NCBI GenBank assembly: GCA_001797465.1
Contig: MGPQ01000002.1
Coordinates: forward strand, 32,410 to 96,409
Source of the DNA: Deltaproteobacteria bacterium GWB2_55_19
GTDB lineage: Bacteria; Desulfobacterota; GWC2-55-46
DNA length: 64,000 bases
Reading direction: 5' to 3'
Part shown: positions 18,775 through 53,885 of the stretch, piece after piece
Layout of the letters: each line of letters starts with the position of its first letter
How positions within the stretch are numbered: the first letter of the stretch is position 1
The notes under the pieces: generated by a model
What the model saw: only the letters and a program-made list of their open reading frames with translations
What the model was told of the DNA's origin: nothing
Database searches by the model: none
Position numbers and translations under genes: made by a program

Positions 18775-19848
18775 TCAGTCCAGGTGCTGTTCATAGATGT
18801 CATTGAAGTCCGCGGCTATTTTTCTGAACATGTCGAGCAGGGCCGGGTCGAAATGCGATGGAAGCGTCCTGCCGTCGCCATCGAGTATGATGCTTAAAAC
18901 CTCCTTGTGTGAGAGGGCCGGCTTGTAGGGGCGCCTGGACCTGAGGGCGTCGTACTGGTCGACGAGCATCACTATCCTGCCTTCAAGCGGCGCCTCGGCC
19001 CCTTTGAGGCCCCTCGGGTATCCTGTGCCGTCCCACCTCTCGTGGTGGGTAAGCGCGACTGATGCCGCTATCTGGATGTTCTCGTGCGGGGAGTCGATGA
19101 GCATCTTGTTGCCTATGGAGGTGTGGGTCTTCATCACCTCGAACTCCTCGGTGGTGAGCCTGCCGGGTTTAAGGAGTATGCTGTCCGGGATGCCGATCTT
19201 CCCGATGTCGTGCATTGGGGACGCGAATGTGATGTTCTCGACGAACTCCGCGCCCTTTCCGAGCGCCTCGGCGAGCCTCCCGGAGTATATCCCGATCCTT
19301 TTGATGTGCGCCCCGGTGTCGGTGTCCCTGTACTCGGCGACGGCGGTCATCCTGTGGACTATCTCCCTGGATATGGATTTTACCATGCTGAGGGCGTTGG
19401 CGAGCTCGTGCGTCCTCTTTTTCACGTCCTCCTCGAGCTTCAACTTGTAGTTCTTCTCTATCTGGAGGAGCCTCCCGTAGTTGACCGCCTTTTTTACGGC
19501 ATGGAGGAGGTACTCGGGCTTATAGGGCTTTATAATGAAGTCGAAGGCCCCCTGCTTTACGGCGTTTACCGCCATGTCGAGCTCCGCGTACGCGGTCATG
19601 AGTATTACCGGGACCTCCTTGTTCATGGAGTGTATCTTTTCGAGGAGGTCTATGCCGGACATCCCCGGCATCTTTACGTCGGTCAGGACCGCGTCGAACC
19701 TCCCGAGCGCGAACTTTTTTACCGCCTCAGCCGGGTCCGTAAACGGGGAGACCGAGAACCCGTATCCCGAAAGGAGGAGAGAAGTGCTGTCGAGGACGAA
19801 TGCGTTGTCGTCGACGACAAGTATGGCGCCCTCCTGTATCTCGTTCAT
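18775..19848 (-). CDS. Response regulator with HD-GYP phosphodiesterase domain (RpfG-like)
   Basis: N-terminal receiver (ILVVDDN...D), then an HD domain (HDIGKIGIP) and the [11 protein letters not shown] motif. Confidence 0.85.
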
Positions 19849-22800
19849 CTGTCTATCACCTCCCTGACTTTTTTGAGGAACTCGCTCGGCGAGACAGGCT
19901 TGGAGATGAAATCCCGCGAGCCCGCGAGCCCCTTGGACCTCACTAAATCCGAGGGATATCCGCTGGTGAAGATGACCTTCATATCCGGCTTTACTGACTT
20001 TATCATCTCATAGACCTCGTTCCCGGCCTTTCTCGGCATGACTATGTCGAGGATGAGGAGGTCGATTGAGTCCTTGTGCTCCATGAACTTCGAATAAGCG
20101 TCCTCGCCGTCGACCGCCGCGATGACCCTGTAGCCGAACTCCTGGAGGATGGTCTTTGCGATGTTCCTGACGTCCTCTTCGTCTTCGGCAAGGAGGACGG
20201 TCTCGGAGCCGCCCCGGACGAGGAACTTTTCAGGCTCGGCGTGCAGCAAGGCCTCTTCGGCGAGCGGAAGGTATATCCTGAAGGTCGTCCCCGCGCCGGG
20301 ATTGCTCGCGACGTCTATGAAGCCGTTATGCTGTTTCACTATGCCGTAGACCATCGAGAGCCCGAGCCCAGTGCCCTTGCCTACCCCCTTGGTCGTGAAA
20401 AACGGCTCGAAGACCTTCTTCAATATCTCTTCGGACATGCCCTCGCCGGTGTCCGAGAACACTATCACGGCGTGTCTGCCGGGCGAGCCGTAGCCGTGGG
20501 CGTCCACGAAGTCGCGCCCGATAACGGCGGCTTCGGTAGAGATGGCGATCCTCCCGCCCCCGGGCATCGCGTCTCTCGCGTTCGTAGCCAGGTTCATGAG
20601 GACATGCTCTATCTGGGTCGAGTCGGCCTTGACTACGAGCGGCTCGGCGCAGAGCGAGGCCGTAAGCTCTATGTCCTCGCCTATGAGCCGCTTGAATATC
20701 TTCTCTACGCGCCTTACGAGTTCGTTAATATCCGTGGGCTGGGGGTTCAATACCTGTTTTCTGCTGAAGGCGAGAAGCCCCTGTGTGAGGCTTGCCGCCT
20801 TCTCGGATAAGGTCAGTATGTGGTCCGAGTAGCTCCTGACGAGGTCGTCGTCACCCTTTTTCATCAGAAGGAGGTTCCCGTACCCGATGAGGGCCGTCAG
20901 GATGTTGTTGAAGTCGTGGGCGATGCCTCCGGCCAACTGGCCCACGGCTTCCATCTTCTGCGCCTGCCTGAACTGGTCCTCTATGTTTTTCCTCTCGGTT
21001 ATGTCCTCGACGATGCCGTCGAGGAAGACCTCGTTGTCCTGCGCCTTCCTGACGGCGGTGACGGAGGCCCAGAACCTCCTGCCCTTCCGGGTCTTAAGCT
21101 CCGCCTCCTCTCCCCTGACGAAACCGTCCCTGTCGAGCTTCTTCAAAAACTCCTCCCTGCCGGCCGGGTCACAGTAAAAGGAGCTCACTGTCATCTCCTG
21201 GAGTTCCTCTCTTGATGAGGCCTCGAACATCTCCGCGAGCGCGCGGTTGACCTCGATGAACCGGGCGTCATCACCCCATGTCGTCCTGAAGATGCCTACG
21301 GTCAGGTTATTGGCGAGATCCTCGTATTTGAGCTTCAACTCCCTGCGTGCCTCGTCGGCGGTCTTGGCCTTTCTCTCGGATTCGATAGATTCCATTGCGT
21401 AGGAGATGTCGGCCGCGAGGGCTTCGAGCAGAGCGACGTCCTCCTCGTTGAAAGAACCCTGGACCCCGGAGTAAAGGCTCATCGCGCCCATGGGTTTTCC
21501 GCCCCTCCAGAGCGGGATCGCGGCCAGGGACCCGAAGCGGCACTCAAGCGCCCTCTCCTTCCATTGGGCCATGTCGGGGTCATTGCCAATGTCGTTGCAG
21601 ACCACGGGCCTCCCCTCGCTGACCGCGGTCCCGGCCGGGCACCGGCCCGCAGGCTCCTCCGACACGCTTATGTCCATAGTAGACAGATATTCGGCGCACG
21701 CGCCGCTTGAGGCGACGGGCTTTACCGATTTTGTCCCATCATCGACGACCCCTATCCACGCGAAGAGGAACCCGCCCTCCTCTACCGCTATCCTGCACGC
21801 CTCCTCGCATAGCTTCTCAGTGTCGCGGACGCGCACTATCGCCTCGTTTATCCGGCTAAGCACCGCGTAGAGCCGGTTGAGCCTCTCGATCCTCTCCTCG
21901 GCGAGCTTTTTCTCCGTTATGTCCGAAAAGACCCCGTCGGTGTATTTGACGCCGTCCCTCTCGTACGCGGCGGTGGCCCTGTCGTTCACCCATATCCATC
22001 GCCCGTCCTTCGTCCGCATCCTGTAGACCTCGTCAAAGACCTTGTTCATGGAGAAGAAGTCGGAATAGGCCCTTCTGACCATTTCAATGTCGTCGGGGTG
22101 GACGCTTGAGAACCATATCCGCGGGTCGGCGTATATCTCCTCAGGGGTATAGCCCATTATTCCCATTACATTCGCGCTCGCGAATACGACTTGGCCGTCC
22201 TCGGCGGCCGTCCAGACGACGTCCGGTATGTTCGAGATAAGGGTCCTGTGCTTCTCCTCGCTCTCGCGGAGGAGGTCGGCCCGCGTCTTTATCTCCAGCG
22301 ACATCCTGTTGAAGGACTCCGAGAGAACGCCGATCTCGTCCCTTGTCTCTACGGGTACCAAAGCGCCGTAGCCGCCCTCGGCGATCCTGGAGGTGGCCGA
22401 GACGATGGTCACAAGCCGCCTTATGACCACCCTGTAAAGAAAGACGAAGAAGGCGCCTATGAGGGCCGCGGATATGAGCCCCCCGACGAGGGCGTCCCTA
22501 AACATCTCGTCTATGGGCGCGAGGACCTCGGCTGAGTCGGCCTCAGCCACGAGCGCCCACTGGAGCATGGGCAGGCACATCGACGCCCCGGCGACCTCGA
22601 CGCCCCTGTAATTGCCGTAGAATGCGGCGACCTCCTTCGCCCCCCGGAGGCACTCGTCTACCGGCAGTGTATTGACCTTTGTATTAAGGATAGAATCCTT
22701 CACAAAGGCCGACGCTGTTATCATGAGCCTGTCCCTGTTGACGATGTAGACCTCCATCGTCTCCCTCTTGCCCTTTGACCCGGGTATGCCCCCTAAGTCC

Positions 22801-23399
22801 CTGTTGAACTCGCCCTTAAGAAGCGCGGTAAGGCCAGAGAGGCGAACAAAGTTGACGAGGGCCCCGATAGTCCTGCCGCCCTTGTCCCTTTCAAGGATAG
22901 GCACGGCGATGATGATGATGCCGGACGCATCTCCGAGGTCATGCTCCGTAATAAACGGTCCCTTTGTCCCTGCCATAAAAAAAGGCTCAGTTGAGACATC
23001 CGTCCCGGCGTAATTCTGGTCAGTGGAAGCGACTATCCTCCCGTCGAGGGAGACGACCGCGATACGCGCGAGCGATGGGTCGAGGACGAGCTTCTCCCTG
23101 TCCATGTACTCGCCGAGCCTCCTCGACGCCCCCTTGTCCCCGGAGGCGAACCTCTTCATCTCGGCCCTTATATGGCCGTCGGTAGAAAAGTCCTGGGCCC
23201 GCCTCTTCGACATCTCGAGGTATTGATAGACCTGCCCCTCATAGGCCTCCGCGATGACGGTGAGGTCGTCGAGGACGCTCTTTTTCAGGTGCTCCTTGTT
23301 TTTATTGTAGCTGAATACGAATGTGATGAGTATGGGGAGGATTATGAGGATAAGGGCCAAAAGGGCCTTTGTAAGGAGTGAGGAGCCGGAAAATTTCAT
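19845..23399 (-). CDS. Multi-domain hybrid sensor histidine kinase (periplasmic sensor-HAMP-PAS-GAF-PAS-HisKA-HATPase-REC)
   Basis: 1184 aa. H-box [10 protein letters not shown]-boxes DTGEGM/GLGLSMV, C-terminal receiver ([10 protein letters not shown]...LDIVMP). A 4-nt overlap with the downstream HD-GYP gene. Confidence 0.85.
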
Positions 23400-31104: not shown

Positions 31105-31560
31105 AAAGTCATTTCTTGCGTCCGAAGGGTTGCATCCGGCTACCGTCTAAAAAACAAACATGCCGTATTGCGGCGGGTCAATCCCAACTTGAACCCGCAG
31201 GGTTTTTAGTCCTGTTTTACCAATACACAGGCGCAGGGCGGAAAACGCATAAGGGAAGAAGAGGCGCGCGAGCGGATGGGGGAGGAAGAAAGCGTTAGGA
31301 GCCCCTGCGGATAAGCGCGCGGAGCGCGCAAAAAGACCTTGGGCAAAAATGTCTTCTCCCCTTCTTACCAAGGAGGGGCGGGGGGAGGTCGTCTTGAAAT
31401 CACCCCTCCCTGCCTCCCCTTGTAAAAAGGGGAGGAGATTTACTCCAGCGCAAAAAGGCCTTGGGCAAAATGTTCAAATAGCCCGTACAAAACGCATCTC
31501 GGGTTACGAATTAACGGGCTCAGGCTACAAACCTGAACCCGCCATCGGCAAGTGTGATAT
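31105..31560. repeat. Copy 2 of the mosaic intergenic repeat family (Z module plus hairpin modules plus X-like hairpin)
   Basis: ttttaccaatacacaggcgcagggcggaaaacgcataagggaag... is identical to 47707-47750 and reverse-complemented at 37425-37455. Terminal gggttacgaa...ctgaacccgc hairpin. Confidence 0.7.
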
Positions 31561-37214: not shown

Positions 37215-37745
37215 TCTTTTACCCGCTCTCACATGAACTCAAATATACGCTTGTATGGGCTGGTTCGGATCTTCCGCCTAAGGCCCATTTGCGCGCTCCG
37301 CGCGCTTTTCGCGCAGGGGCTCCTAACGCTTTCTTCCTCCCCCATCCGCTCGCTCGCCCCTTAGAGCGCTACGCGTCTAATCCACCCCGGCTCGCTCGCC
37401 TCCTCCTCCCTTGGGCGCTCTCCGCCCTGCGCCTGTGTATTGGTAAAGACTGAACGAAAAATAAATCTTTTTTGTTTTTCAAAAATCCCCAGGCATGGGG
37501 TGAGCGACCTTAAGGAAGGAAGCAGTGTGAGCGAGCCGGGGAAGTAAAAAGGCGCGACAGCGCCCTAAGGGGCGAGCGAATGGGAGGGAGAGGGCGACGG
37601 GAGCGAATCCCCATGCCTAAAAAAAAGCCCGGCATGGCGCAAAAGGCTTTTAACAGAAAATTGGAATTGCCCATCAGGCATATATCTGGTCACGAATCAA
37701 AAGGTTCAGGTCGCAGACCTGAACCCGCAAAAGTTCAAAACCTGC
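37215..37745. repeat. Copy 3 of the mosaic repeat family (reverse orientation relative to copy 4; ends with the X hairpin)
   Basis: 37300-37455 is rc(Z); 37480-37620 is rc(Y) of 47560-47700; 37640-37737 X module ggttcaggtcgcagacctgaacc is reverse-complemented at 47430-47505. Confidence 0.7.
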
Positions 37746-37756
37746 GTAACCAAACT

Positions 37757-39970
37757 CTACCTGCCCTCCCTCCTCTCCGCGAGCGCCGTCTTAACCGTCT
37801 TTAAGAGGCCGCCGATGGAATAGGGCTTTTGCAGAAAGGCATACCCCTTCTCGACCAATACCGGCCACTGGGTCTTCATGTCGATAAAGCCGCCCGTAAG
37901 GACGACCGCCGTCTTCGGGTTCCTCGCCACTGCGTATTCCGCAAGGTCGAACCCGGTCCTGTCGGGGAGCGCCATGTCGGAGATGACAAGGTCGAAGACT
38001 CCGCCGTTCTCGAAGATGTCGGCCGCGTCCTTTACAATCGATGCCTCTGCAACAGCGTAGCCATGCTCCTGGAGGGCCGTTTTGGCAAAGTCTCTCGCCT
38101 TAAAGTCGTCCTCGACGAGCAAAACCCGCTCCCCTTTCCCGTCGAGGACGCCGCCTCCGCGGTCCGGCTCCAGCCGCCTGTCCCCGATAAGCGCAGGCAT
38201 ATAGACGAGGAACGTAGTCCCCTTTCCCGGCGCGCTCTCAACGGATATCCAGCCCCCGTGCTGTCTCACTATCCCGTATACGACGGCGAGCCCGAAGCCG
38301 GTCCCTTTGCCGGGCTCCTTGGTCGTGAAGAAGGGCTCGAATATGCGCTCGGCAACCTCCTTTTCCATGCCGACCCCGGTGTCCCTTACCGTAATGCGGA
38401 CCATCTCCCCGGGTTTTGAGCCTGGCATGAGCATCGAATCCCCGGGAGAGACGACAACGCTCTCGGTCTTTATGAAGAGACCCCCGCCCCCGGGCATGGC
38501 GTCGCGGGCGTTCACCGCGAGGTTCATAATCACCTGTTCGAGACTGCCCTCGTCCGCGTTGACGGGCCAGACGCCCGGCTCGAGCTCGGTTCTGACGGAG
38601 ACCTCGTCTCCTATGAGCCTCGTTATTATTATGAGGAGGTCCTCTATGACCTTGTTCACGTCCAGGAGGACGAGCTCGAAGGGGTGGTTGCGGCTGAAGA
38701 GCAGGAGCTGTTTCGTGAGCTTTGAGGCGAGCATCACCGAGAGTATGATGCCGTCGAGCCTGTGATAGAGCGGCCCGGACCTCTCCGCGTCCTCAAGGGC
38801 GAGCTCCGCGTTCCCCCTTATGGCCGTAAGGACGTTGTTGAAGTCGTGGGCTATGCCGCCGGCGAACCTCCCTATCGCCTCCATCTTCTGGGCCTGGTTT
38901 ATCCGGGCCTGGAGCCTCTCCTTCTCCATCTCAGAGCGCTTCCTCTCGGTTATGTCCCTTATGGTCCCGGTGAAGTTTATCTCTCCGCCTATGGTGAAGC
39001 TGTTGACGACGAGCTCAATCGGGAATACCTCGCGGTTCTTGCGAAGCCCCTCGATCTCCACCACCTTCCCCTGTATCGTGCTTACCCCGGTATCGAGGAA
39101 CCACTTGACCCCCTCCTTGTGGCGTTGCCTGTACTGCTCCGGCATGAGCCTTACGAGCTCCATGCCTATGAGCTCGTCCCTCTGATACCCGAATATCGCT
39201 TCGGCTGACGGGTTGCAGTCGATTATCCTGTCCCCGGTGTCGGAGACTATCATCGCGTCGAAGGCGGTGTTGTGTATCTGCCTGTACCTGCGCTCGCTCT
39301 CCTTAAGGGTCCTCTCGGTCCTCTTCCTCTCGGTTATGTCCTCTCCGGAGCTCAATACCCCGGTTATCACGCCGCCTTCCCTTAAGATTATATTGTGCCA
39401 GAGTATCGTCCTCTCGTCTCCCGCCCTCGTCAGCACCGGGTTCTCGAAGTATCCCTCCAGTTCGGACCCCCCGCCAACGAGATTGTTGAAGACCGCCCTT
39501 ACCTCGCCCCTCATCCTCTCCGGCACGAAGCGGAACCAGTCCATGCCGATGAGTTCCCTCTCTGAGTAGCCGAGTATGCCGCACCCGCGCTTGTTCATGA
39601 GCTTTATCCTGCCCGCCCCGTCGAGGACGAGGACCATGACGCCGGCTATGTCGAGGTACTTCTGAAAATTGTCCCGCTCCTGCTTGAGCTCCCTTTCCGC
39701 CTGGCGCCTCATCCTGACCATCTCAAGGACAGGCCTGAAGAGAAAAAAGTAGAGAGAGGGGACAAGAACAATCATGAGGATGGCCGGGTCGAGTATGACG
39801 TTTAAGGGATAGGTGAGCCCGGCCGCGTAGATGACGACCATTACGAGCGCCTCGGCGAGGAATACCGAGGCCGCGGTTATGAGGATGATACGGAGCGGAG
39901 AACCGTTTTGGCGCAGTCTGTCCCATGGGCCGTCCGCTCCGGACTTCCGCCCCTTCCAATCGTCTGCCAT
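37757..39970 (-). CDS. PAS/PAC hybrid sensor histidine kinase with C-terminal receiver
   Basis: Two N-terminal TM helices, about 3 PAS domains, H-box AHDFNNVLT, HATPase G-boxes, C-terminal REC (VLLVEDDF...D). Confidence 0.85.
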
Positions 39971-42330: not shown

Positions 42331-42643
42331 TGTCCACCTCTCGTTTTTTAAGTCTTCAGCTTACCGCTATAATGGACGAGCCCAAAGCCCGCTTGAACAA
42401 CAACCCCAACAACCCTTCCCCTCTGGATTTTCTTGATATATCTTATTTTCGGCGTAATGTAGAAAATATTAAGCAATTTTTATGCCAGTAACCGGACAAC
42501 CCTCGCCTCAGGCCGATTCTTGCACTATAACCACTTACTTTTTCACACTTTTTTATTTAGCGGGTTTGAAAAGGAAGAGTGGCGGGCCGGCTACCAAAGA
42601 GCCCCTTATCGGCCTCTCAAACGAAAAAAGTCAAAAATTTGGT

Positions 42644-42672
42644 TTGACAAGGGGGCCTTTGCCGACTATCAT
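42644..42672 (+). promoter_or_regulatory. Sigma70-type promoter of the lipoprotein gene
   Basis: TTGACA (42644-49), 17 nt, TATCAT (42667-72). Confidence 0.45.
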
Positions 42673-42714
42673 TACAATTCAAAATTTTATTTTACCTTAT
42701 AGGAGGAGTGAGAA

Positions 42715-42894
42715 ATGAAGAAAATCGCAATGCTCGCAATTGGATCCATGTTCGTGCTGGCCTCGTTTACCGCCTGCAAGAAGCAGGAAGCACCGGCACC
42801 GGCACCGGCCGTAGTAGCCCCTGCGGAGACCGCGCCTGCGGTTGCGCCAGCGCCGGCTCCCGCGACACCCGCCCCTGCGGAGCACGCGAAGTAG
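42715..42894 (+). CDS. Small Ala/Pro-rich lipoprotein (59 aa); not in the ORF track
   Basis: AGGAGG RBS 8 nt upstream. MKKIAMLAIGSMFVLASFTAC lipobox, then (AP)n-rich tail. Strong terminator downstream. Confidence 0.65.
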   Translation: MKKIAMLAIGSMFVLASFTACKKQEAPAPAPAVVAPAETAPAVAPAPAPATPAPAEHAK

Positions 42895-42937
42895 CTGACA
42901 AAGGGCCGTAAAGACCGGCCGAGTAGGGTAATAACAG

Positions 42938-42998
42938 AAAGGCCGCAGAGGTTTTTGGAAGGGTACTCCCCTCCACTCTGCGGCCTTTCTGTTTTTGG
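42938..42998 (+). terminator. Rho-independent terminator of the lipoprotein gene
   Basis: aaaggccgcagag...ctctgcggccttt followed by CTGTTTTTGG. Confidence 0.6.
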
Positions 42999-43146
42999 AG
43001 CAATTTGATGAAACCGGGGGACGCTAATCCCTTCTCCACTTCGAACTGGACTGCGACAACAGTCGCTCGCTCGACATGACCGGGGGCAGGAAAAGGCCCC
43101 GGCTAAAAAGTCCGTCGAGGCAAGGGGCTGTTTTACAGGGCTGGCC

Positions 43147-43320
43147 CTACCCGCCCTTTTCCAGGTTCTTCACCATCTCAGTAAAGTAGTCGTCCTGAAT
43201 GGTCGTCGAATCCGCGCACTTCGGGCACTTGATAACAGCGCCTTTTTTGAGGTCCTTAGCCTTTTTCTTGAAAACAGTCTGACACGATGGGCAGGTTATG
43301 TCTATTGCGAGCTCAGCCAT
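43147..43320 (-). CDS. Small zinc-ribbon protein (57 aa); not in the ORF track
   Basis: GGAGAT RBS; MAELAIDITCPSCQTVFKKKAKDLKKGAVIKCPKCADSTTIQ... (CPxC...CPKC). Confidence 0.55.
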   Translation of the reverse strand: MAELAIDITCPSCQTVFKKKAKDLKKGAVIKCPKCADSTTIQDDYFTEMVKNLEKGG

Positions 43321-43427
43321 AGATAGTATCTCCTTCCGGATAGTATTAACTTTTTACCACAAACCGGCCCCCGTGGCAATAAGCCTAAAGGCCCTGCCCA
43401 ACAGGCCTCGTACAGGGCCTCACTAAA

Positions 43428-43460
43428 AAAAGGCCGCCGAAAAGGTTCGGCGGCCTCTCA
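43428..43460 (-). terminator. Rho-independent terminator (minus strand)
   Basis: Minus strand ggccgccgaaccttttcggcggcc followed by TTTTTTT. Confidence 0.65.
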
Positions 43461-43481
43461 GCTCTCCTGCGCGTCCCCTTC

Positions 43482-43577
43482 TTAGCTCAAGGCCGACATC
43501 CCGGCTACTATAACTATTGCGAGAGAAATGGTCGCCATGTCGTAAACCGTACTTAAGGTGACCTGTCTCCTCCTCAT
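43482..43577 (-). CDS. Candidate 31-aa single-TM membrane peptide
   Basis: GAGGAGG 7 nt upstream of ATG. MRRRQVTLSTVYDMATISLAIVIVAGMSALS. Stops 22 nt before the strong terminator. The overlapping 69-aa ORF-track frame runs through the terminator hairpin. Confidence 0.3.
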   Translation of the reverse strand: MRRRQVTLSTVYDMATISLAIVIVAGMSALS

Positions 43578-43780
43578 CTCGCCGCCTCCTCATCTGCTTT
43601 TTTGTCCATCTCCTGCCTTTCATTATAAACAATGGGGATTAAAGGATTATTAGGCGGCGGGGGTGGTTTTTCAGGGTATTCGAACAAGGCCCCTGTCTTT
43701 AATAACCGAATGATTTAAAAGACTATTTTTGCAGATAACGGGACGCCGGAGCGGGTATGCAGTAGGGCGCGCCGATTTGG

Positions 43781-43809
43781 TTGGAAAAAAATCCCCCTTG
43801 GAGTATAAT
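43781..43809 (+). promoter_or_regulatory. Sigma70-type promoter of the usp gene
   Basis: TTGGAA, 17 nt, TATAAT (43804-09), about 70 nt upstream of the start. Confidence 0.45.
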
Positions 43810-43877
43810 CTACGGGGAAAATCTTTTCAGGGTCCGGGGAAAAGAACAATTTTTAGATGGCCCCTAAAAGGCGGCTT

Positions 43878-46097: not shown

Positions 46098-47395
46098 AGA
46101 CTGCGGCCGTCATCGCCGCTGTGTTCGCAGTCTACCTTAACGCGCTCCTATACGGGTCTTTCCAGTTCGACGACTTCAATGTCATCGTAAACAACCCTTC
46201 GGTCCACTCACTCGATGCGTGGCTGGGAGGGCTCTCAAGCGGCATAAGGCCGTTGCTCAAATTCACCTACGCCGCGAACTGGGCGCTCTCGGACGGACCC
46301 TTCGGTTTTCACCTCTTTAACATAATTGTCCACGCGGCGTCCTCGGTCTTCGTCTTAAAACTATCGGAACTGTTCATGGAAAGGTCAGGCGTCGGCAAGG
46401 GCGCCGCGCTCTTTACCGCGCTCCTCTTCGCGCTCCACCCTATACAGACAGAGGCCGTTACCTACATATCCGGCAGGTCGTCTTCCCTCATGGCTATGCT
46501 CCTCCTCGCCTCGCTCTTTTTTTACGAGAAGGGGCGGGACAAAGGGGTTGCGCTCACATACCTCGCCTCCCCGTTCTTTTTTCTGCTCGCCGTGGGCGTC
46601 AAGGAAACGGCCGTGATCTTCCCATTCGCGCTTGTTTTATGGGACTGGGCCCTGGGCCGGGGGATGCGGGAATCGCTCAAAAAGCAGGCGACGCACTGGG
46701 GGCTTCTGCTACTCGCGGTGTTTTTCATCCTCGCAGGCTACAACCGCTTCTTTAGCGGGCTGGACCCGAGGGGGTTGTCATCGACGGTCTTAAGCAATGT
46801 AAACGGCGTTCAATATCTCCTCTCGAGGTTCGCGTTCATCCACGCGCTGAACATCGACCCCGACCTGCCAATATTGACTGCGTGGGACGCGCCGCTCATC
46901 GCAAAGGCGGTCTTCCTGTCAGCTCTGCTTGTCTCAGGGTTTCTGCTCGTCAGGAAAAGGCCCTGGGCCGGGTTCGGGATAGTCTGGCTCTTTCTCTTTA
47001 TCCTGCCGACGAATTCCGTCATACCGAGGATGGATGTGGCGAACGAGCGCCACCTTTATATCGGCGGGTTCGGGGTATTCCTCGCCGTTTCAGGCGAACT
47101 CTCAAAGATTGCAAATAATCTCGGGAGGAGGAGCGCCATAGCCGTAGCCGCGGCGCTCCTCTTGATACTCGGCGCGGCGACCGTCGCGAAAAACAGGGAT
47201 TACAGGGATGAGACGACGCTCTGGGAGGCTACCGTCAGGCTCTCCCCCGCAAAGCCCAGGGCCTGGAACAACCTCGGGTTCGCGTATTCCGCCGAGGGGA
47301 GGGAGAAGGAGGCACGAATGGCGTACATGGAGGCGCTCCGCCTCGACCCCGGATACAGAAAGGCGGAGAGGAACATTCAGGCGCTCGGCGACTGA
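46094..47395 (+). CDS. TMTC/PMT-like polytopic membrane protein with C-terminal TPR repeats (second paralog)
   Basis: ORF track gives 46034 (GTG) in a different frame from dacA. A GTG at 46094 overlapping the dacA stop (GTGA) is more parsimonious. About 10 TM helices plus TPR (WNNLGFAYSAEGREKEARMAYMEALRLDPGY). Confidence 0.6.
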   Translation: MKTAAVIAAVFAVYLNALLYGSFQFDDFNVIVNNPSVHSLDAWLGGLSSGIRPLLKFTYAANWALSDGPFGFHLFNIIVHAASSVFVLKLSELFMERSGVGKGAALFTALLFALHPIQTEAVTYISGRSSSLMAMLLLASLFFYEKGRDKGVALTYLASPFFFLLAVGVKETAVIFPFALVLWDWALGRGMRESLKKQATHWGLLLLAVFFILAGYNRFFSGLDPRGLSSTVLSNVNGVQYLLSRFAFIHALNIDPDLPILTAWDAPLIAKAVFLSALLVSGFLLVRKRPWAGFGIVWLFLFILPTNSVIPRMDVANERHLYIGGFGVFLAVSGELSKIANNLGRRSAIAVAAALLLILGAATVAKNRDYRDETTLWEATVRLSPAKPRAWNNLGFAYSAEGREKEARMAYMEALRLDPGYRKAERNIQALGD

Positions 47396-47399
47396 TAAA

Positions 47400-47940
47400 T
47401 CTCCGCCAAGGAAGCCTTGTCACTCACCCCCCCCCGTTTGCGGGTTCAGGTTTGTAACCTGAACCTTTTTGATTCATGACCCGATATACGCCTGATGGGT
47501 AATTCCAATTCTTCTGCCTAAAGCCCGTTGCGCCCTGCCGGGCTTTTTTTCGGCATGTGGATTCTCGCTACGCCCTCCCCTCCCATTCGCTCGCCCCTTA
47601 GGGCGCTGTCGCGCCTTTTTACTTCCCCGGCTCGCTCATATGGCTACCTCCCTTAAGGTCGCTCACCCCATGCCTGGGAGTTTTGAGAAACAAAAAAATT
47701 TATTTTTCGTTTTGTTTTACCAATACACAGGCGCAGGGCGGAAAACGCATAAGGGAGGAAGAGGCGAGCGCGCGAAGCGCGCAAAAAGGCCTGGACAAAA
47801 GGTTCACATAGCCGTACAAGCGAAACCGGGTTACGAATCAAAGGGTTCAGGTTGCAGACCTGAACCCGCAAAAGGCTGATAAATCCAAGCCGAGGGAACC
47901 TATTACCAAAAAAACTCCCCCTCCCCTTGCCCTCTCCCGC
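47400..47940. repeat. Copy 4 of the mosaic repeat family (complete: X-rc, Y, Z, X, with about 30-bp terminal inverted hairpin modules)
   Basis: 47438-47470 gcgggttcaggtttgtaacctgaacc and 47848-47878 gggttcaggttgcagacctgaacccgc are inverted. Internal modules are shared with the other three copies. Confidence 0.7.
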
Positions 47941-47968
47941 AAGGGGAGGGGGATTTAAGAACCACGCG

Positions 47969-48946
47969 TCAGAATATTATATTGGGCCGTATGATAAACT
48001 GGAAGTTCTCGCGCTCCGGCGGGTACTGGAGGTCTCCTGAGTACCTGTCCTCGCTCTCCCAGATGAAACCGGCGGCGATCGTAAAGCCGACGTGGCGTCC
48101 CTTCAGGGGCCAGCGCCTGTCCACCGTCAATATGTGGCGTATGGGCTTCAGGGTCTCGCTGTCCATGTCGAATTTGTACTCGAAGCCGCTGTTCTTAAGT
48201 ATCGATTCAGACTCCTCGAAGTCGAGCCTCCCTCTCCTGACAGAGACATAGACGACGTCCTTTATGTCCGGGTTTGAATGTACCTTGCCGCCGACCCTGA
48301 ACGACCAGTGGAGGTCGTGTGTCGAGAACTTCCTGTCCCCCTTTATCTTCCACTCGAACTCGAGCCAGTCGTCCTCGATGAGCCTGTTGTCCTTTATGTG
48401 GTAGTCGCCGTAGCTTACGAGGTATCCCATGTACCCGAAGTTGCCGCTCCGCCACGGCTCATTCTGGCGCGTGAACGAGACCACATTGCCGAGGAATAGA
48501 GACACCGCGTAGGGCTCCTCGAAGCCGGCGGTGACGGCCTTGACGAGGTTCAGGCTGTCGGTTATCTCGCCGCCACTGTACAGGCCCTCCATGTTGCTGT
48601 TTATGAAGACGCCGAGGTTTGGCATGGGGAATACCGCGGCCTCGAGGACGAGGAAACGCGGTATATAGGAGCTGAAGAGGAGGTCCTTATAGACGAGAAA
48701 CTCGTCCCTCTCACCGACGTCCGGTATCGGCTCGTCGGTGAGGCTCAGGTAAAGCCCGACGTTCGAGTAATACGCGTCGAGCTCGCTCTCCCAGCTTACG
48801 GTCTTTTTTGAAGGAGGCGGGGCGGCCTCTTCGGCCTTTTCTGCCGGGGCGTGCTCGGCCCGCGCCGGAGCGGAAAAGGCGAAGAACATTAATGGCAGTA
48901 TAATGAGAAGCCTTGTAAAAAAGGGGGACATCAGGGGACCCGGCAT
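47969..48946 (-). CDS. Hypothetical secreted protein, possible outer-membrane beta-barrel (C-terminal Phe)
   Basis: ORF track extends to 49066. The signal-peptide-like MSPFFTRLLIILPLMFFAFSAPARA begins near 48931-48946. Alternating beta pattern and C-terminal ...IIRPNIIF. Confidence 0.4.
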   Translation of the reverse strand: MPGPLMSPFFTRLLIILPLMFFAFSAPARAEHAPAEKAEEAAPPPSKKTVSWESELDAYYSNVGLYLSLTDEPIPDVGERDEFLVYKDLLFSSYIPRFLVLEAAVFPMPNLGVFINSNMEGLYSGGEITDSLNLVKAVTAGFEEPYAVSLFLGNVVSFTRQNEPWRSGNFGYMGYLVSYGDYHIKDNRLIEDDWLEFEWKIKGDRKFSTHDLHWSFRVGGKVHSNPDIKDVVYVSVRRGRLDFEESESILKNSGFEYKFDMDSETLKPIRHILTVDRRWPLKGRHVGFTIAAGFIWESEDRYSGDLQYPPERENFQFIIRPNIIF

Positions 48947-53506: not shown

Positions 53507-53582
53507 TGGTGGCCAGAGACGGAATCGAACCGCCGACACGAGGATTTTCAGTCCTCTGCTCTACCTGCTGAGCTATCTGGCC
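53507..53582 (-). tRNA. tRNA-Phe (GAA anticodon), CCA encoded
   Basis: Minus strand GGCCAGATAGCTCAGCAGGTAGAGCAGAGGACTGAAAATCCTCGTGTCGGCGGTTCGATTCCGTCTCTGGCCACCA; cloverleaf with anticodon loop CT-GAA-AA. Confidence 0.9.
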
Positions 53583-53619: not shown

Positions 53620-53880
53620 TGTATTGTCAAGTCTTTTGTCCTCGCCGAACGGGCAAGGTCCATATCGGGATGACTCTGCCTGCCCTTGCCCTATAAACTC
53701 CCGAAAGACATTGGCCACGCGCCGAGCGGTCCTCGCCGGACGGGGAGCCTTGAGCAACCCGATTTGACATTGGCCGTACGCCGAGTACCCTCGCCGGACG
53801 GGCAAATTCGTATCAAGCGGCTTTGAGTCCAAGGGCCTGGAGCAACCGGATTTGAATCTGGCCGTACGCCGAGTACCCGA
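53620..53880. repeat. Imperfect tandem repeat (about 3 units of about 65-90 bp) upstream of rsmE
   Basis: Units ttggcc(a/g)(c/t)(a/g)cgccgag(c/t)(a/g)(g/c)(t/c)cctcgccggacgg(g/c)(g/a)a...gagcaacc(c/g)gatttga recur at 53693, 53760 and 53844, with partial unit at 53640. Confidence 0.6.
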
Positions 53881-53885
53881 GCGGG

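Follow-up and report, generated by a model that had tools for sequence, protein, structure and literature searches.

Mosaic intergenic palindromes of Deltaproteobacteria bacterium GWB2_55_19 are probably REPIN/BIME-like elements with RAYT-type hairpin ends

To our knowledge, nearly all studies of repetitive extragenic palindromic (REP) sequences, the paired REPs that form hairpins (REPINs) and their REP-associated tyrosine transposases (RAYTs) concern Pseudomonas, enterobacteria, Neisseria and Stenotrophomonas. In these hosts, the systems look like single-copy, vertically inherited partners of their hosts. Here we analysed a window of 64,000 nucleotides from Deltaproteobacteria bacterium GWB2_55_19 (contig MGPQ01000002.1, positions 32,410 to 96,409), in which four intergenic regions, E1 to E4, share repeat modules, including a hairpin that we call X. 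We consider it about 75% probable that these regions are copies of a non-autonomous repeat resembling REPINs and bacterial interspersed mosaic elements (BIMEs), with X ends of the RAYT type.

Like the window elements, Correia/NEMIS and ERIC sequences, the long-hairpin miniature inverted-repeat transposable elements of Neisseria and enterobacteria, are palindromic repeats between genes. They measure 100-150 bp or more, and their transcripts form long hairpins, which can influence termination or the stability of the mRNA. Their termini are plain inverted repeats, a TA duplication accompanies Correia elements, which probably derive from DDE-type elements, and we know of no associated Y1 gene in either family. 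Insertion sequences (ISs) of the IS1634 type are 1.9-kb elements with DDE enzymes, flanked by target duplications of tens of bp and of variable length. Like the REP sequences and REPINs of E. coli (REP-BIME with YafM/RayT, PDB 4ER8) and P. fluorescens, X is a short extragenic palindrome present in many copies. As in REP/RAYT (TnpA-REP) systems, the palindrome brackets a gene for a Y1/HUH enzyme in inverted orientation and is accompanied by no short target duplication, and the X-family protein passes the curated RAYT model; some of its non-autonomous units resemble REPINs, with two inverted palindromes that fold into one hairpin, and singlets, doublets and clusters occur. Enterobacterial BIMEs, like the window elements, are intergenic mosaics of REP hairpins in both orientations with other motifs, often at gene 3' ends. 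The window motifs are nevertheless unrelated to those of BIMEs in sequence, so that the likeness is one of organisation only, and the window units are long, near-perfect palindromes. The IS200 group of the IS200/IS605 family and its non-autonomous derivatives, the palindrome-associated transposable elements (PATEs), resemble the X system in their Y1/HUH transposase (about 150-170 aa), the lack of a short target duplication, hairpins at the ends that are, or in the X system would be, recognised by structure, and deletion derivatives that are or would be mobilised in trans, and the X-RAYT unit of about 590 bp is of IS size. By contrast, the ends of IS200/IS605 elements are two different hairpins on the same strand, whereas X ends are an inverted pair of one hairpin.

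X is 26 nt long, GGTTCAGGTT-GCA-AACCTGAACC followed by CGC. The original prediction, made from the window sequence, took it for a perfect 9-bp hairpin; it is indeed a hairpin, but its stem is really 10 bp with a 3-nt loop, and it carries an outer tag, 5' GCGG and 3' CCGC. The pattern GGTTCAGGTNNNNNACCTGAACC, with at most two mismatches, matched the window four times (31517, 37703, 47443 and 47844), against zero matches expected from 100 shuffles. Reading of the sequence, a repeat search and self-BLAST all upheld the presence of common modules, in both orientations, at four intergenic regions, and self-BLAST of the four elements found no further copies in the window. The repeats are dense, as had been stated, but with refined limits they sum to about 1.6 kb rather than 2 kb.

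E4 (47440..47869, 430 bp) is a complete copy with inverted X ends (GCGGG...CCCGC), whose 36-nt arms are 89% complementary. The predicted order of inverted X, Y, Z and X was correct, with the addition of a further module, W, directly inside each X, consisting of a GCGC hairpin, then AAAAGGCCTTGGGCAAAA, then GGTTACGAAT. From left to right, E4 comprises the terminal hairpin X' (GCGGGTTCAGGTTTGTAACCTGAACC, 47440..47465, plus strand), which is followed by TTTTTGATTC; inverted W (W', 47466..47550, minus strand), with a GCCCG...CGGGC hairpin and then T7; Y with an AT-rich centre (47578..47707, plus strand; 130 nt, 88% complementary to 37459-37588); Z (47716..47773, plus strand); W (47776..47843, plus strand; GCGCGCGAAGCGCGC hairpin, AAAAAGGCCTGGACAAAAGG ... 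GGTTACGAATCAAAG); and the right terminal hairpin X (GGTTCAGGTTGCAGACCTGAACCCGC, 47844..47869, plus strand). The spacer of about 380 nt between its X hairpins is a foreign mosaic. E3 (37234..37728, start approximate) is a 495-bp palindrome with the order W, Y', inverted Z, centre, inverted Y, inverted W and X, the X hairpin lying at its right end only (GGTTCAGGTCGCAGACCTGAACCCGC, 37703..37728, plus strand) and showing one compensatory departure from the consensus, C-G for T-A at the apex of the stem. E3 had been described as Y and Z in reverse orientation ending in X, and it does match E4 in opposite orientation: inverted matches of 130 nt and 58 nt, at 88-90% identity, were joined by BLAST into 341 nt at 87.7%. 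Both by-eye comparison and the repeat search identified Z as an inverted, diverged copy of distal Y, so both E3 and E4 amount to imperfect palindromes of considerable length, arranged as X' W' Y / AT-rich centre / Y' W X. Indeed, a single strand of E4 folded into one long hairpin (minimum free energy [MFE] -189.8 kcal/mol, z -8.5), and E3 gave an MFE of -256 kcal/mol (z -11.5). E4 thus has two inverted X hairpins and E3 has one; E2 has two decayed ones, and E1 has none.

We scanned one genome per species with GGYTCAGGYNNNNRACCTGAACCCGC and obtained at least 117 stretches. Among the matches listed, X occurred in groundwater 'Deltaproteobacteria'/Thermodesulfobacteriota metagenome-assembled genomes (MAGs) of 55-57% GC, in anammox Brocadiaceae (Kuenenia, Jettenia, Brocadia, Loosdrechtia and Wunengus), in other Planctomycetota and in Nitrospirota of about 40% GC. 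At least 19 sites were present in Kuenenia sp. Bin_40 and at least 11 in JACRCL01, and 9 of 148 instances fell inside crude open reading frames (ORFs). X marks the end of an element: across 148 aligned instances, the sequence upstream of X was conserved within a genome in discrete lengths, and there was no conservation after CCCGC. For 147 instances, the third-longest homology had a median of 54 nt upstream of X and 10 nt downstream of CCCGC, and homology of 50 nt or more was found upstream in 74 instances and downstream in none. Integron attC sites, dif/Xer sites, CRISPR repeats and the guide-RNA ends of TnpB elements were considered on sequence pattern and spacing and rejected, given the missing GTTRRRY/RYYYAAC core, the short central spacer, the irregular spacing and the fact that both ends are the same hairpin inverted.

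Complete short elements with an inverted hairpin at the opposite end measured about 117 nt in Brocadiaceae and about 190 nt in Kuenenia; the deltaproteobacterial MAGs JACRCH and JACRCJ had doublets of about 84 nt, and solo, fully palindromic GCGGG...CCCGC hairpins were present too. The left hairpin in Brocadiaceae had compensatory variants (AAGTT/AACTT, GGGTT/AACCC, AAATT/AATTT and ACGTT/AACGT). Singlets, doublets and longer units make up the picture described for REP sequences and REPINs (PMC3116915). A unit of about 280 nt in the related genus JACRCL has the order X, centre, Y', W and X, and with this layout in mind E3 and E4 look like head-to-head dimers of a Y-W-X unit.

The interior modules are dispersed as well. 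W, Y and Z recurred at 72-90% identity in the MAGs JACPGB, JACREV and CAZDUP beside genes unrelated to those of the window, so the family is dispersed rather than locally duplicated. An exact 27-mer of Z was absent from all fetched loci, the relatives carrying Z only at about 85% identity. The four copies do lie within 46 kb, as expected if a segment had been duplicated locally within this part of the chromosome, but such a duplication has next to no chance of being the explanation: the copies occur in both orientations and in unrelated gene contexts, their modules sit at non-syntenic loci of the three MAGs, and X is present in at least 117 stretches of other genomes. The original prediction would have been undone by a lack of other copies or by such a duplication; our search of other genomes instead found copies that were dispersed and non-syntenic.

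To find the enzyme that goes with X, we clustered the ORFs of the 117 X-bearing loci (fetched loci, these and others, are numbered here with an L). No transposase, DDE enzymes included, recurred near X; the only recurrent genes encoded histidine kinases, TPR/PMT proteins and ABC ATPases. A tblastn search with the E. coli RAYT sequence, which agrees with PDB 4ER8, gave a weak match in L008 (Jettenia), where GCGAGTTCAGGTTTGTAACCTGAACTC ends 15 nt before the ATG of a 166-aa ORF and GGTTCAGGTTACAAACCTGAACCCGC lies just past its end. The same hairpin-gene-hairpin arrangement was present in L060, and inverted X hairpins bracketed a RAYT gene in L008, L060, L118, L119, L121, L126, L127 and others. 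These units are about 590 bp long and occurred in Brocadiaceae, other Planctomycetota, Thermodesulfobacteriota, Nitrospirota and metagenome contigs of 38-60% GC. Three other candidates were set aside. L079 gave a strong tblastn match, but its RAYT is surrounded by its own GTAG-type REP (GGTGGGCACAGCCCACCCTAC) and not by X; the IS200-like gene of L096 does not adjoin X, and the IS5-family gene of L095 is unrelated. The L079 locus (6100-7130, in a Nitrospirae MAG) holds a RAYT of the classical type, which shares 46% identity with that of E. coli, and one REP copy lies inside its reading frame at about 6825-6845.

The X-associated protein, of 166-167 aa, scored 86.4 bits against NCBIfam NF047646 REP_Tyr_transpos (cutoff 80) and 24.9 against Pfam Y1_Tnp (cutoff 23), and against NF033573 transpos_IS200 it reached 18 bits, well short of the cutoff of 55. 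In an alignment of 14 members, the HUH motif (NH-x-H) and the Tyr in Y-[IV]-H-x-NPVRK were invariant. Its sole match in a profile search of the PDB was TnpA-REP (4ER8, E 2e-7), so its similarity to the E. coli RAYT is only remote, and it was only 24-28% identical to the classical RAYT of L079. Homologs with 55-95% identity, nearly all 166-167 aa long, were present in Brocadiaceae, Nitrospirota, Thermodesulfobacteriota, Patescibacteria and Methylomicrobium. Several of them are already labelled RayT in their source annotation, and the RAYT family carries that label in public annotation.

Hairpin placement was examined at 80 metagenome loci and on eight contigs retrieved by exact look-up. Within 100 nt upstream of the RAYT gene, 51 of 88 loci had a perfect hairpin of 8 bp or longer, and 64 of 82 had one downstream; these hairpins usually lay about 25 nt before the ATG and 5-25 nt past the stop codon. 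The stem varied with the protein (GGTTCAGGTT, GGTTCAAGTT, GGAACTGGTT, GGAGCAGGTT, GTCGGGGTT and CGGACGGGG), with an apex of GTT-loop-AAC and a 3' YGC tag kept throughout. In 24 hairpins, 9 of 10 stem pairs had changes on both sides, and 97.9% of cells were paired, so that the stem co-varies with the divergence of the RAYT. Deletion derivatives were evident: in L048, a pair of hairpins encloses residues 1-33 fused to residues 145-163, and the short elements of Jettenia have 3' subterminal parts that come from the RAYT 3' end.

Because the partner is a Y1/HUH RAYT, the elements fall into the REP/REPIN/BIME class rather than among classical DDE-type miniature inverted-repeat transposable elements (MITEs); they belong to a known class and are not a new kind of element. 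A classical MITE would be an internally deleted DDE-type IS mobilised through its terminal inverted repeats, and the inverted termini of E4, about 36 nt each and 370 nt apart, as well as the dispersal of the family, would suit it. Every terminus is itself a hairpin, however, no DDE transposase recurs beside X in the 117 loci, the bracketed gene encodes a Y1/HUH enzyme, and a short target-site duplication of fixed length is missing: in 91 hairpin-bounded units, the longest word shared by the two flanks averaged 4.6 nt, compared with 4.4 nt in shuffles. The missing short duplication fits a Y1/HUH mechanism and speaks against a DDE-type MITE, which we regard as a very improbable origin.

We then compared the window copies with the RAYT units. 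In blastn searches of E1 to E4, the match was confined to the terminal 26-41 nt of E2, E3 and E4, at 80-100% identity. The left hairpin of E4 was identical over 26 nt to the left hairpin of the L141 RAYT unit, and all 24 of its nucleotides aligned to L127 matched. The window termini also share a subterminal GATTCGTG motif and a CCCGCAAAAG flank with L127, a contig of 60% GC. All four window X copies have, on their inner side, a subterminal motif (GATTCGTGAC/GATTCGTAAC) resembling the left end of the RAYT unit, upstream of the gene, so the window elements can be read as REPIN-like inverted pairs of the left-end REP. L127 offers the closest example; its left end reads ...CCTGAACCC-TGAATTCGTGCACGG...ATG and its right end reads CCCGCAAAAGCC, where the window has CCCGCAAAAGG/T. 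A decayed RAYT gene as the source of the interior was ruled out, as sensitive blastn matched the termini only.

Comparison with relatives revealed that E4 is a lineage-specific insertion with an empty site in three of them. In the window, 573 bp separate the TPR gene from the gene downstream. In JACREU010000108, 92 bp lie between the TPR gene (90% identical) and the same downstream neighbour; in ERZ2470813 NODE_1630 (91%), the gap is similar to that of 92 bp; and in JACPGB010000038 (73%), it is 7 bp. The block absent from JACREU010000108 and ERZ2470813 NODE_1630 is 47417..47900, 484 bp comprising E4 and short flanks. Since the terminator-like GGGGAGGGG hairpin at 47916-47953 is kept at the empty sites of relatives, it is resident; the interval 47400-47940 originally proposed for this copy therefore contains E4, but its right part belongs to the resident hairpin and not to the element. 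This hairpin, which scored as a terminator for the downstream gene, is of a second family (CCCCTCCCC...GGGGAGGGG) also seen at 2405-2455 and 31354-31445, with similar hairpins in many of the fetched loci (L039, L066, L097, L100, L101 and L104). A C-rich run (CACTCACCCCCCCCC, 47419-47433) lies directly outside the left hairpin of E4, and a poly-C/G run also adjoins a solo X in L033.

An ortholog of E3 is present at the RadC-kinase site of JACREU (L211, 1115-1670), with outer arms about 93% identical; within the corresponding 19 kb of JACREU, it is the only element present. Its centre-left arm (L211 1265-1400, against window 37355-37470) has given way to an unrelated segment that bears a GGGGAGAGG hairpin, and its X tag has mutated to CCAGA. 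The arm swap at an orthologous site means that modules turn over in place. X, W, Y, Z, GC hairpins and GGGGAGG hairpins were differently combined in E1 to E4 and in this ortholog. At 12%, the difference between E3 and E4 exceeds that between the E3 orthologs, which argues that E4 was copied from another master copy.

The original prediction of a mosaic, MITE- or REP-like and probably non-autonomous mobile family thus held up, with dispersal to non-syntenic places, an E4 site empty in three relatives and an end hairpin that brackets a RAYT. In the mechanism we favour, a RAYT supplied in trans would recognise folded, single-stranded X hairpins, cut near the tag and move or copy whatever stands between two inverted hairpins, probably at replication forks, like IS200/IS605 enzymes. 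The cargo in the window lineage would be the palindromic mosaic of W, Y and Z, 350-450 nt long and of separate origin.

Several observations weigh against a REPIN/BIME-like origin with RAYT-type ends. The interior modules W, Y and Z have no detectable relation to the RAYT unit. The window elements are four to five times the typical length of REPINs: those of the P. fluorescens GI group have 71 bp between their two ends (PMC3116915), and the window elements measure 370-495 bp with a large foreign interior. The X tag is GCGG/CCGC and not the GTAG or CGTC of the described REP superfamilies (PMC3733652). No RAYT lies in the 64-kb window, where tblastn with eight RAYTs found no remnant, and none could be tied to the window genome, which was not searched beyond these 64 kb, or to its closest MAGs, JACREU, JACREV and JACPGB. 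RAYT cluster members do carry the names of MAGs from this groundwater 'Deltaproteobacteria bacterium' series, though with no link to the window genome itself; the window copies could be orphans without a RAYT of their own. The covariation count was made on sequences picked for being hairpins. Finally, direct repeats of 26-98 bp flank several units, including E4 and two whole RAYT units, where a single-strand mechanism of the IS200/IS605 type predicts none, and the two copies of the E4 repeat, at just 77% identity, have diverged further than the orthologous flank has between species.

Flanking duplications of complete copies had been proposed as a check on mobility. None that was short and fixed in length appeared, but some units, E4 included, were flanked by long direct repeats of variable length. 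A whole RAYT unit in L150 has a perfect 50-bp repeat (3894-3943 and 4545-4594), and another in L148 has one of about 98 bp (~3348-3445 and ~4073-4170, ~88% identity). L050 has an 86-bp repeat with two mismatches (~631-716 and ~895-980), L057 from Kuenenia a 29-bp repeat with one mismatch (3268-3296 and 3436-3464), and L107 a 26-bp repeat at 77%. These five scored 18.5-59, compared with at most 12 for random pairs of 100-nt flanks. The E4 repeat lies on the plus strand at 47392..47417 (CTGATAAATCTCCGCCAAGGAAGCCT, 26 nt, including the TGA stop codon of the TPR gene) and 47876..47901 (CTGATAAATCCAAGCCGAGGGAACCT, 20 of 26 nt identical to the left copy); it scored only 11 on the flank-pair scale, and its significance rests on a z of 5.6 against shuffled flanks. 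Between hairpin and repeat there were 5-41 nt of filler. Within W of E2, a 23-nt direct repeat, GCGCAAAAAG[A/G]CCTTGGGCAAAA (31326-31348 and 31448-31470, 22 of 23 identical), flanks a 99-nt block that lacks X, a footprint like that of E4. Because the E4 repeat is more diverged than the interspecies orthologous flank, simple duplication at insertion followed by drift fails to explain it. The footprint could reflect widely staggered breaks, template switching at stalled forks or recombination with donor flanks. IS1634-type ISs likewise have long repeats of variable length, but X units show them in only about 6-7 of about 85 cases.

These repeats bear on another explanation, in which the sequences spread without any transposase. 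Replication forks would stall at the hairpins, the polymerase would switch template to another hairpin locus, copy a segment and return upstream of its exit, thereby inserting foreign modules and duplicating a local stretch, and the RAYT would be just one of the loci that carry X. The long, variable repeats with filler at E4 (26 nt), the block in E2 (23), L057 (29), L150 (50, perfect), L050 (86) and L148 (~98) would follow naturally, as would the shuffled modules, the replaced E3 arm in JACREU and an interior unrelated to the RAYT unit. Template switching nevertheless leaves unexplained why a tagged 26-nt hairpin is kept across phyla alongside a RAYT of 55-95% identity, why the boundary at CCCGC is sharp and why the stem co-varies with the enzyme, and about 78 of 84 elements have no flanking repeat. 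We consider spread by template switching alone unlikely, and the RAYT-dependent origin preferable.

The long flanking repeats are also the main reason for a more far-reaching proposal, which we put forward tentatively and rate as possible but doubtful. Here, RAYT and X hairpins would form a compact autonomous element of about 590 bp that is still moving between phyla, rather than a domesticated, vertically inherited REPIN system, and that inserts with long variable duplications (26-98 bp, with filler); the 430-495-bp palindromes of the window would be its cargo-carrying derivatives, doubling as two-way terminators. The phyla involved may be Planctomycetota, Nitrospirota, Thermodesulfobacteriota/'Deltaproteobacteria' and Patescibacteria, in anoxic groundwater and anammox communities. 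REPIN-RAYT pairs described to date are reported to be mostly vertically inherited, with rare transfers over long times (PMC5581495), whereas the X-family enzyme and hairpin are common to several phyla at 55-95% protein identity, and some X-ended insertions, unlike known REPINs, have long flanking direct repeats. Searches for a vector of horizontal spread found none: the RAYT had no close homolog among PLSDB plasmids (at most 32% identity) or INPHARED phages, and X occurred in just 3 IMG/VR contigs. Movement between phyla, if real, would bear directly on the route by which REPINs disseminate, which has been called unresolved (PMC3116915). Our literature search on REPINs, RAYTs and anammox bacteria found no description of the X hairpin or of X-ended elements.

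The spread across phyla, the giant palindromic cargo and the long flanking repeats are unusual traits. A single hairpin and a single RAYT family recur in uncultivated bacteria of several phyla, every form from full units and their deletion derivatives to singlets, doublets and giant palindromes can be seen, and there is a clean pair of filled and empty sites, which makes the family useful for study and a natural data set for asking whether REPIN/RAYT systems spread horizontally and what footprint their insertion leaves. On the practical side, the hairpins probably break metagenome assemblies, and they yield spurious 'hypothetical proteins' with the motif RVQVC[ND]LNP. The RAYT genes of L121, L123 and many of L126-L205 very often lay right at the end of a contig, close to it, or on a contig about 1 kb long, which suggests that flanking hairpin repeats break short-read assemblies and keep RAYTs out of binned genomes. 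Spurious ORFs through X translate to RVQVC[ND]LNP (L008 5213-5485, L081 2319-2684 and similar ones); one family of such ORFs, present in L037, L081 and L097, would be annotated as a hypothetical protein.

Placement at gene ends may say something about why copies persist. In the GCGGG-hairpin orientation, the stem is followed by TTTTGATTC, and three of the four window X hairpins scored as intrinsic-terminator-like, facing the 3' ends of flanking genes: the left hairpin of E4 towards the TPR/PMT gene ending at 47395, the right one, on the minus strand, towards the gene ending at 47969, and the E3 hairpin, on the minus strand, towards the PAS histidine kinase gene ending at 37757. W and Y contain further hairpin-plus-T-run sites that point inward. 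With a T-rich run inward of each outer hairpin, an element between convergent genes would offer an intrinsic-terminator-like hairpin to transcription from both sides. Across all loci, 66 of 105 outer flanks faced a gene 3' end (p = 0.011, with crude ORF calls). As judged from these predictions, two-way terminators may explain why copies are tolerated or kept at gene 3' ends.

The original prediction also raised a structured non-coding RNA (ncRNA) family, in which the repeats would be ncRNA genes or cis-regulatory RNAs kept for their RNA. Very stable folds (z -8.5 and -11.5), compensatory changes in the hairpins and the intergenic position are all compatible with it. At gathering scores, however, an Rfam search of the whole window gave no match for the elements, and at E values up to 1, E3 and E4 gave only a chance match to MIR7533 (21.5 bits against a cutoff of 230). 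Being palindromic, the elements fold alike on both strands; none contains a match to a sigma-70-like promoter, they lie in either orientation relative to neighbouring genes, their presence varies between close relatives and their modules are exchanged. The missing Rfam match, the equal folding of both strands and the polymorphic presence led us to drop this alternative as improbable.

The two remaining copies are more decayed or lack X. E2 (31173..31542, 370 bp) begins with a degenerate left hairpin, continues with Z, an arm of the Y' type, a nested block and W, and ends in a degenerate X. Its Z is 92% identical to that of E4, in keeping with the predicted layout of Z, X and extra hairpins, but a degenerate left hairpin had been overlooked at 31173..31198 (GCGGGTCAATCCCAACTTGAACCCGC, plus strand, one bulge). 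The right X (GGCTCAGGCTACAAACCTGAACCCGC, 31517..31542, plus strand) has two stem mismatches, and the nested block (31349..31447) holds two GGGGAGG-type hairpins. E1 (2215..2550, limits approximate) is without X and comprises a GC hairpin, a Y core (2250-2385), a GGGGAGGG hairpin and W (2488-2545); the Y-like core claimed for it was present, at 75-80% identity. E1 lies between a small ferredoxin gene, just downstream of a CdhD-like gene, and glnA; E2 between the genes for RNase J and a DUF362/ferredoxin protein; E3 between convergent genes for RadC and the PAS histidine kinase; and E4 between convergent genes for the TPR/PMT_2 protein and a protein of no assigned function. Near E1, at 2158-2185, GTCATCGCGAGCGGAGCGAAGCAAGC resembles a widespread repeat (gtcattgcgag...gaagcaatc) seen in L009, L012 and L022.

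Elsewhere in the window, 1.5 kb at 42331-43856 contain small ORFs only, among them a lipoprotein-like gene (~42716-42895) with Ala/Pro-rich repeats and a small minus-strand ORF, and several hairpin-plus-T-run sites. A tRNA gene lies on the minus strand at 53510-53582 (71 bits), and beside it, at 53747-53885, is a pair of 51-nt direct repeats, 84% identical and 88 nt apart. Two segments of 110-132 nt, 72-75% identical, recur between 20280-20980 and 38210-38910 at a constant offset of 17,930 nt; both come from large sensor kinase genes (19845-23399 and 37757-39970) that are paralogous in these parts.

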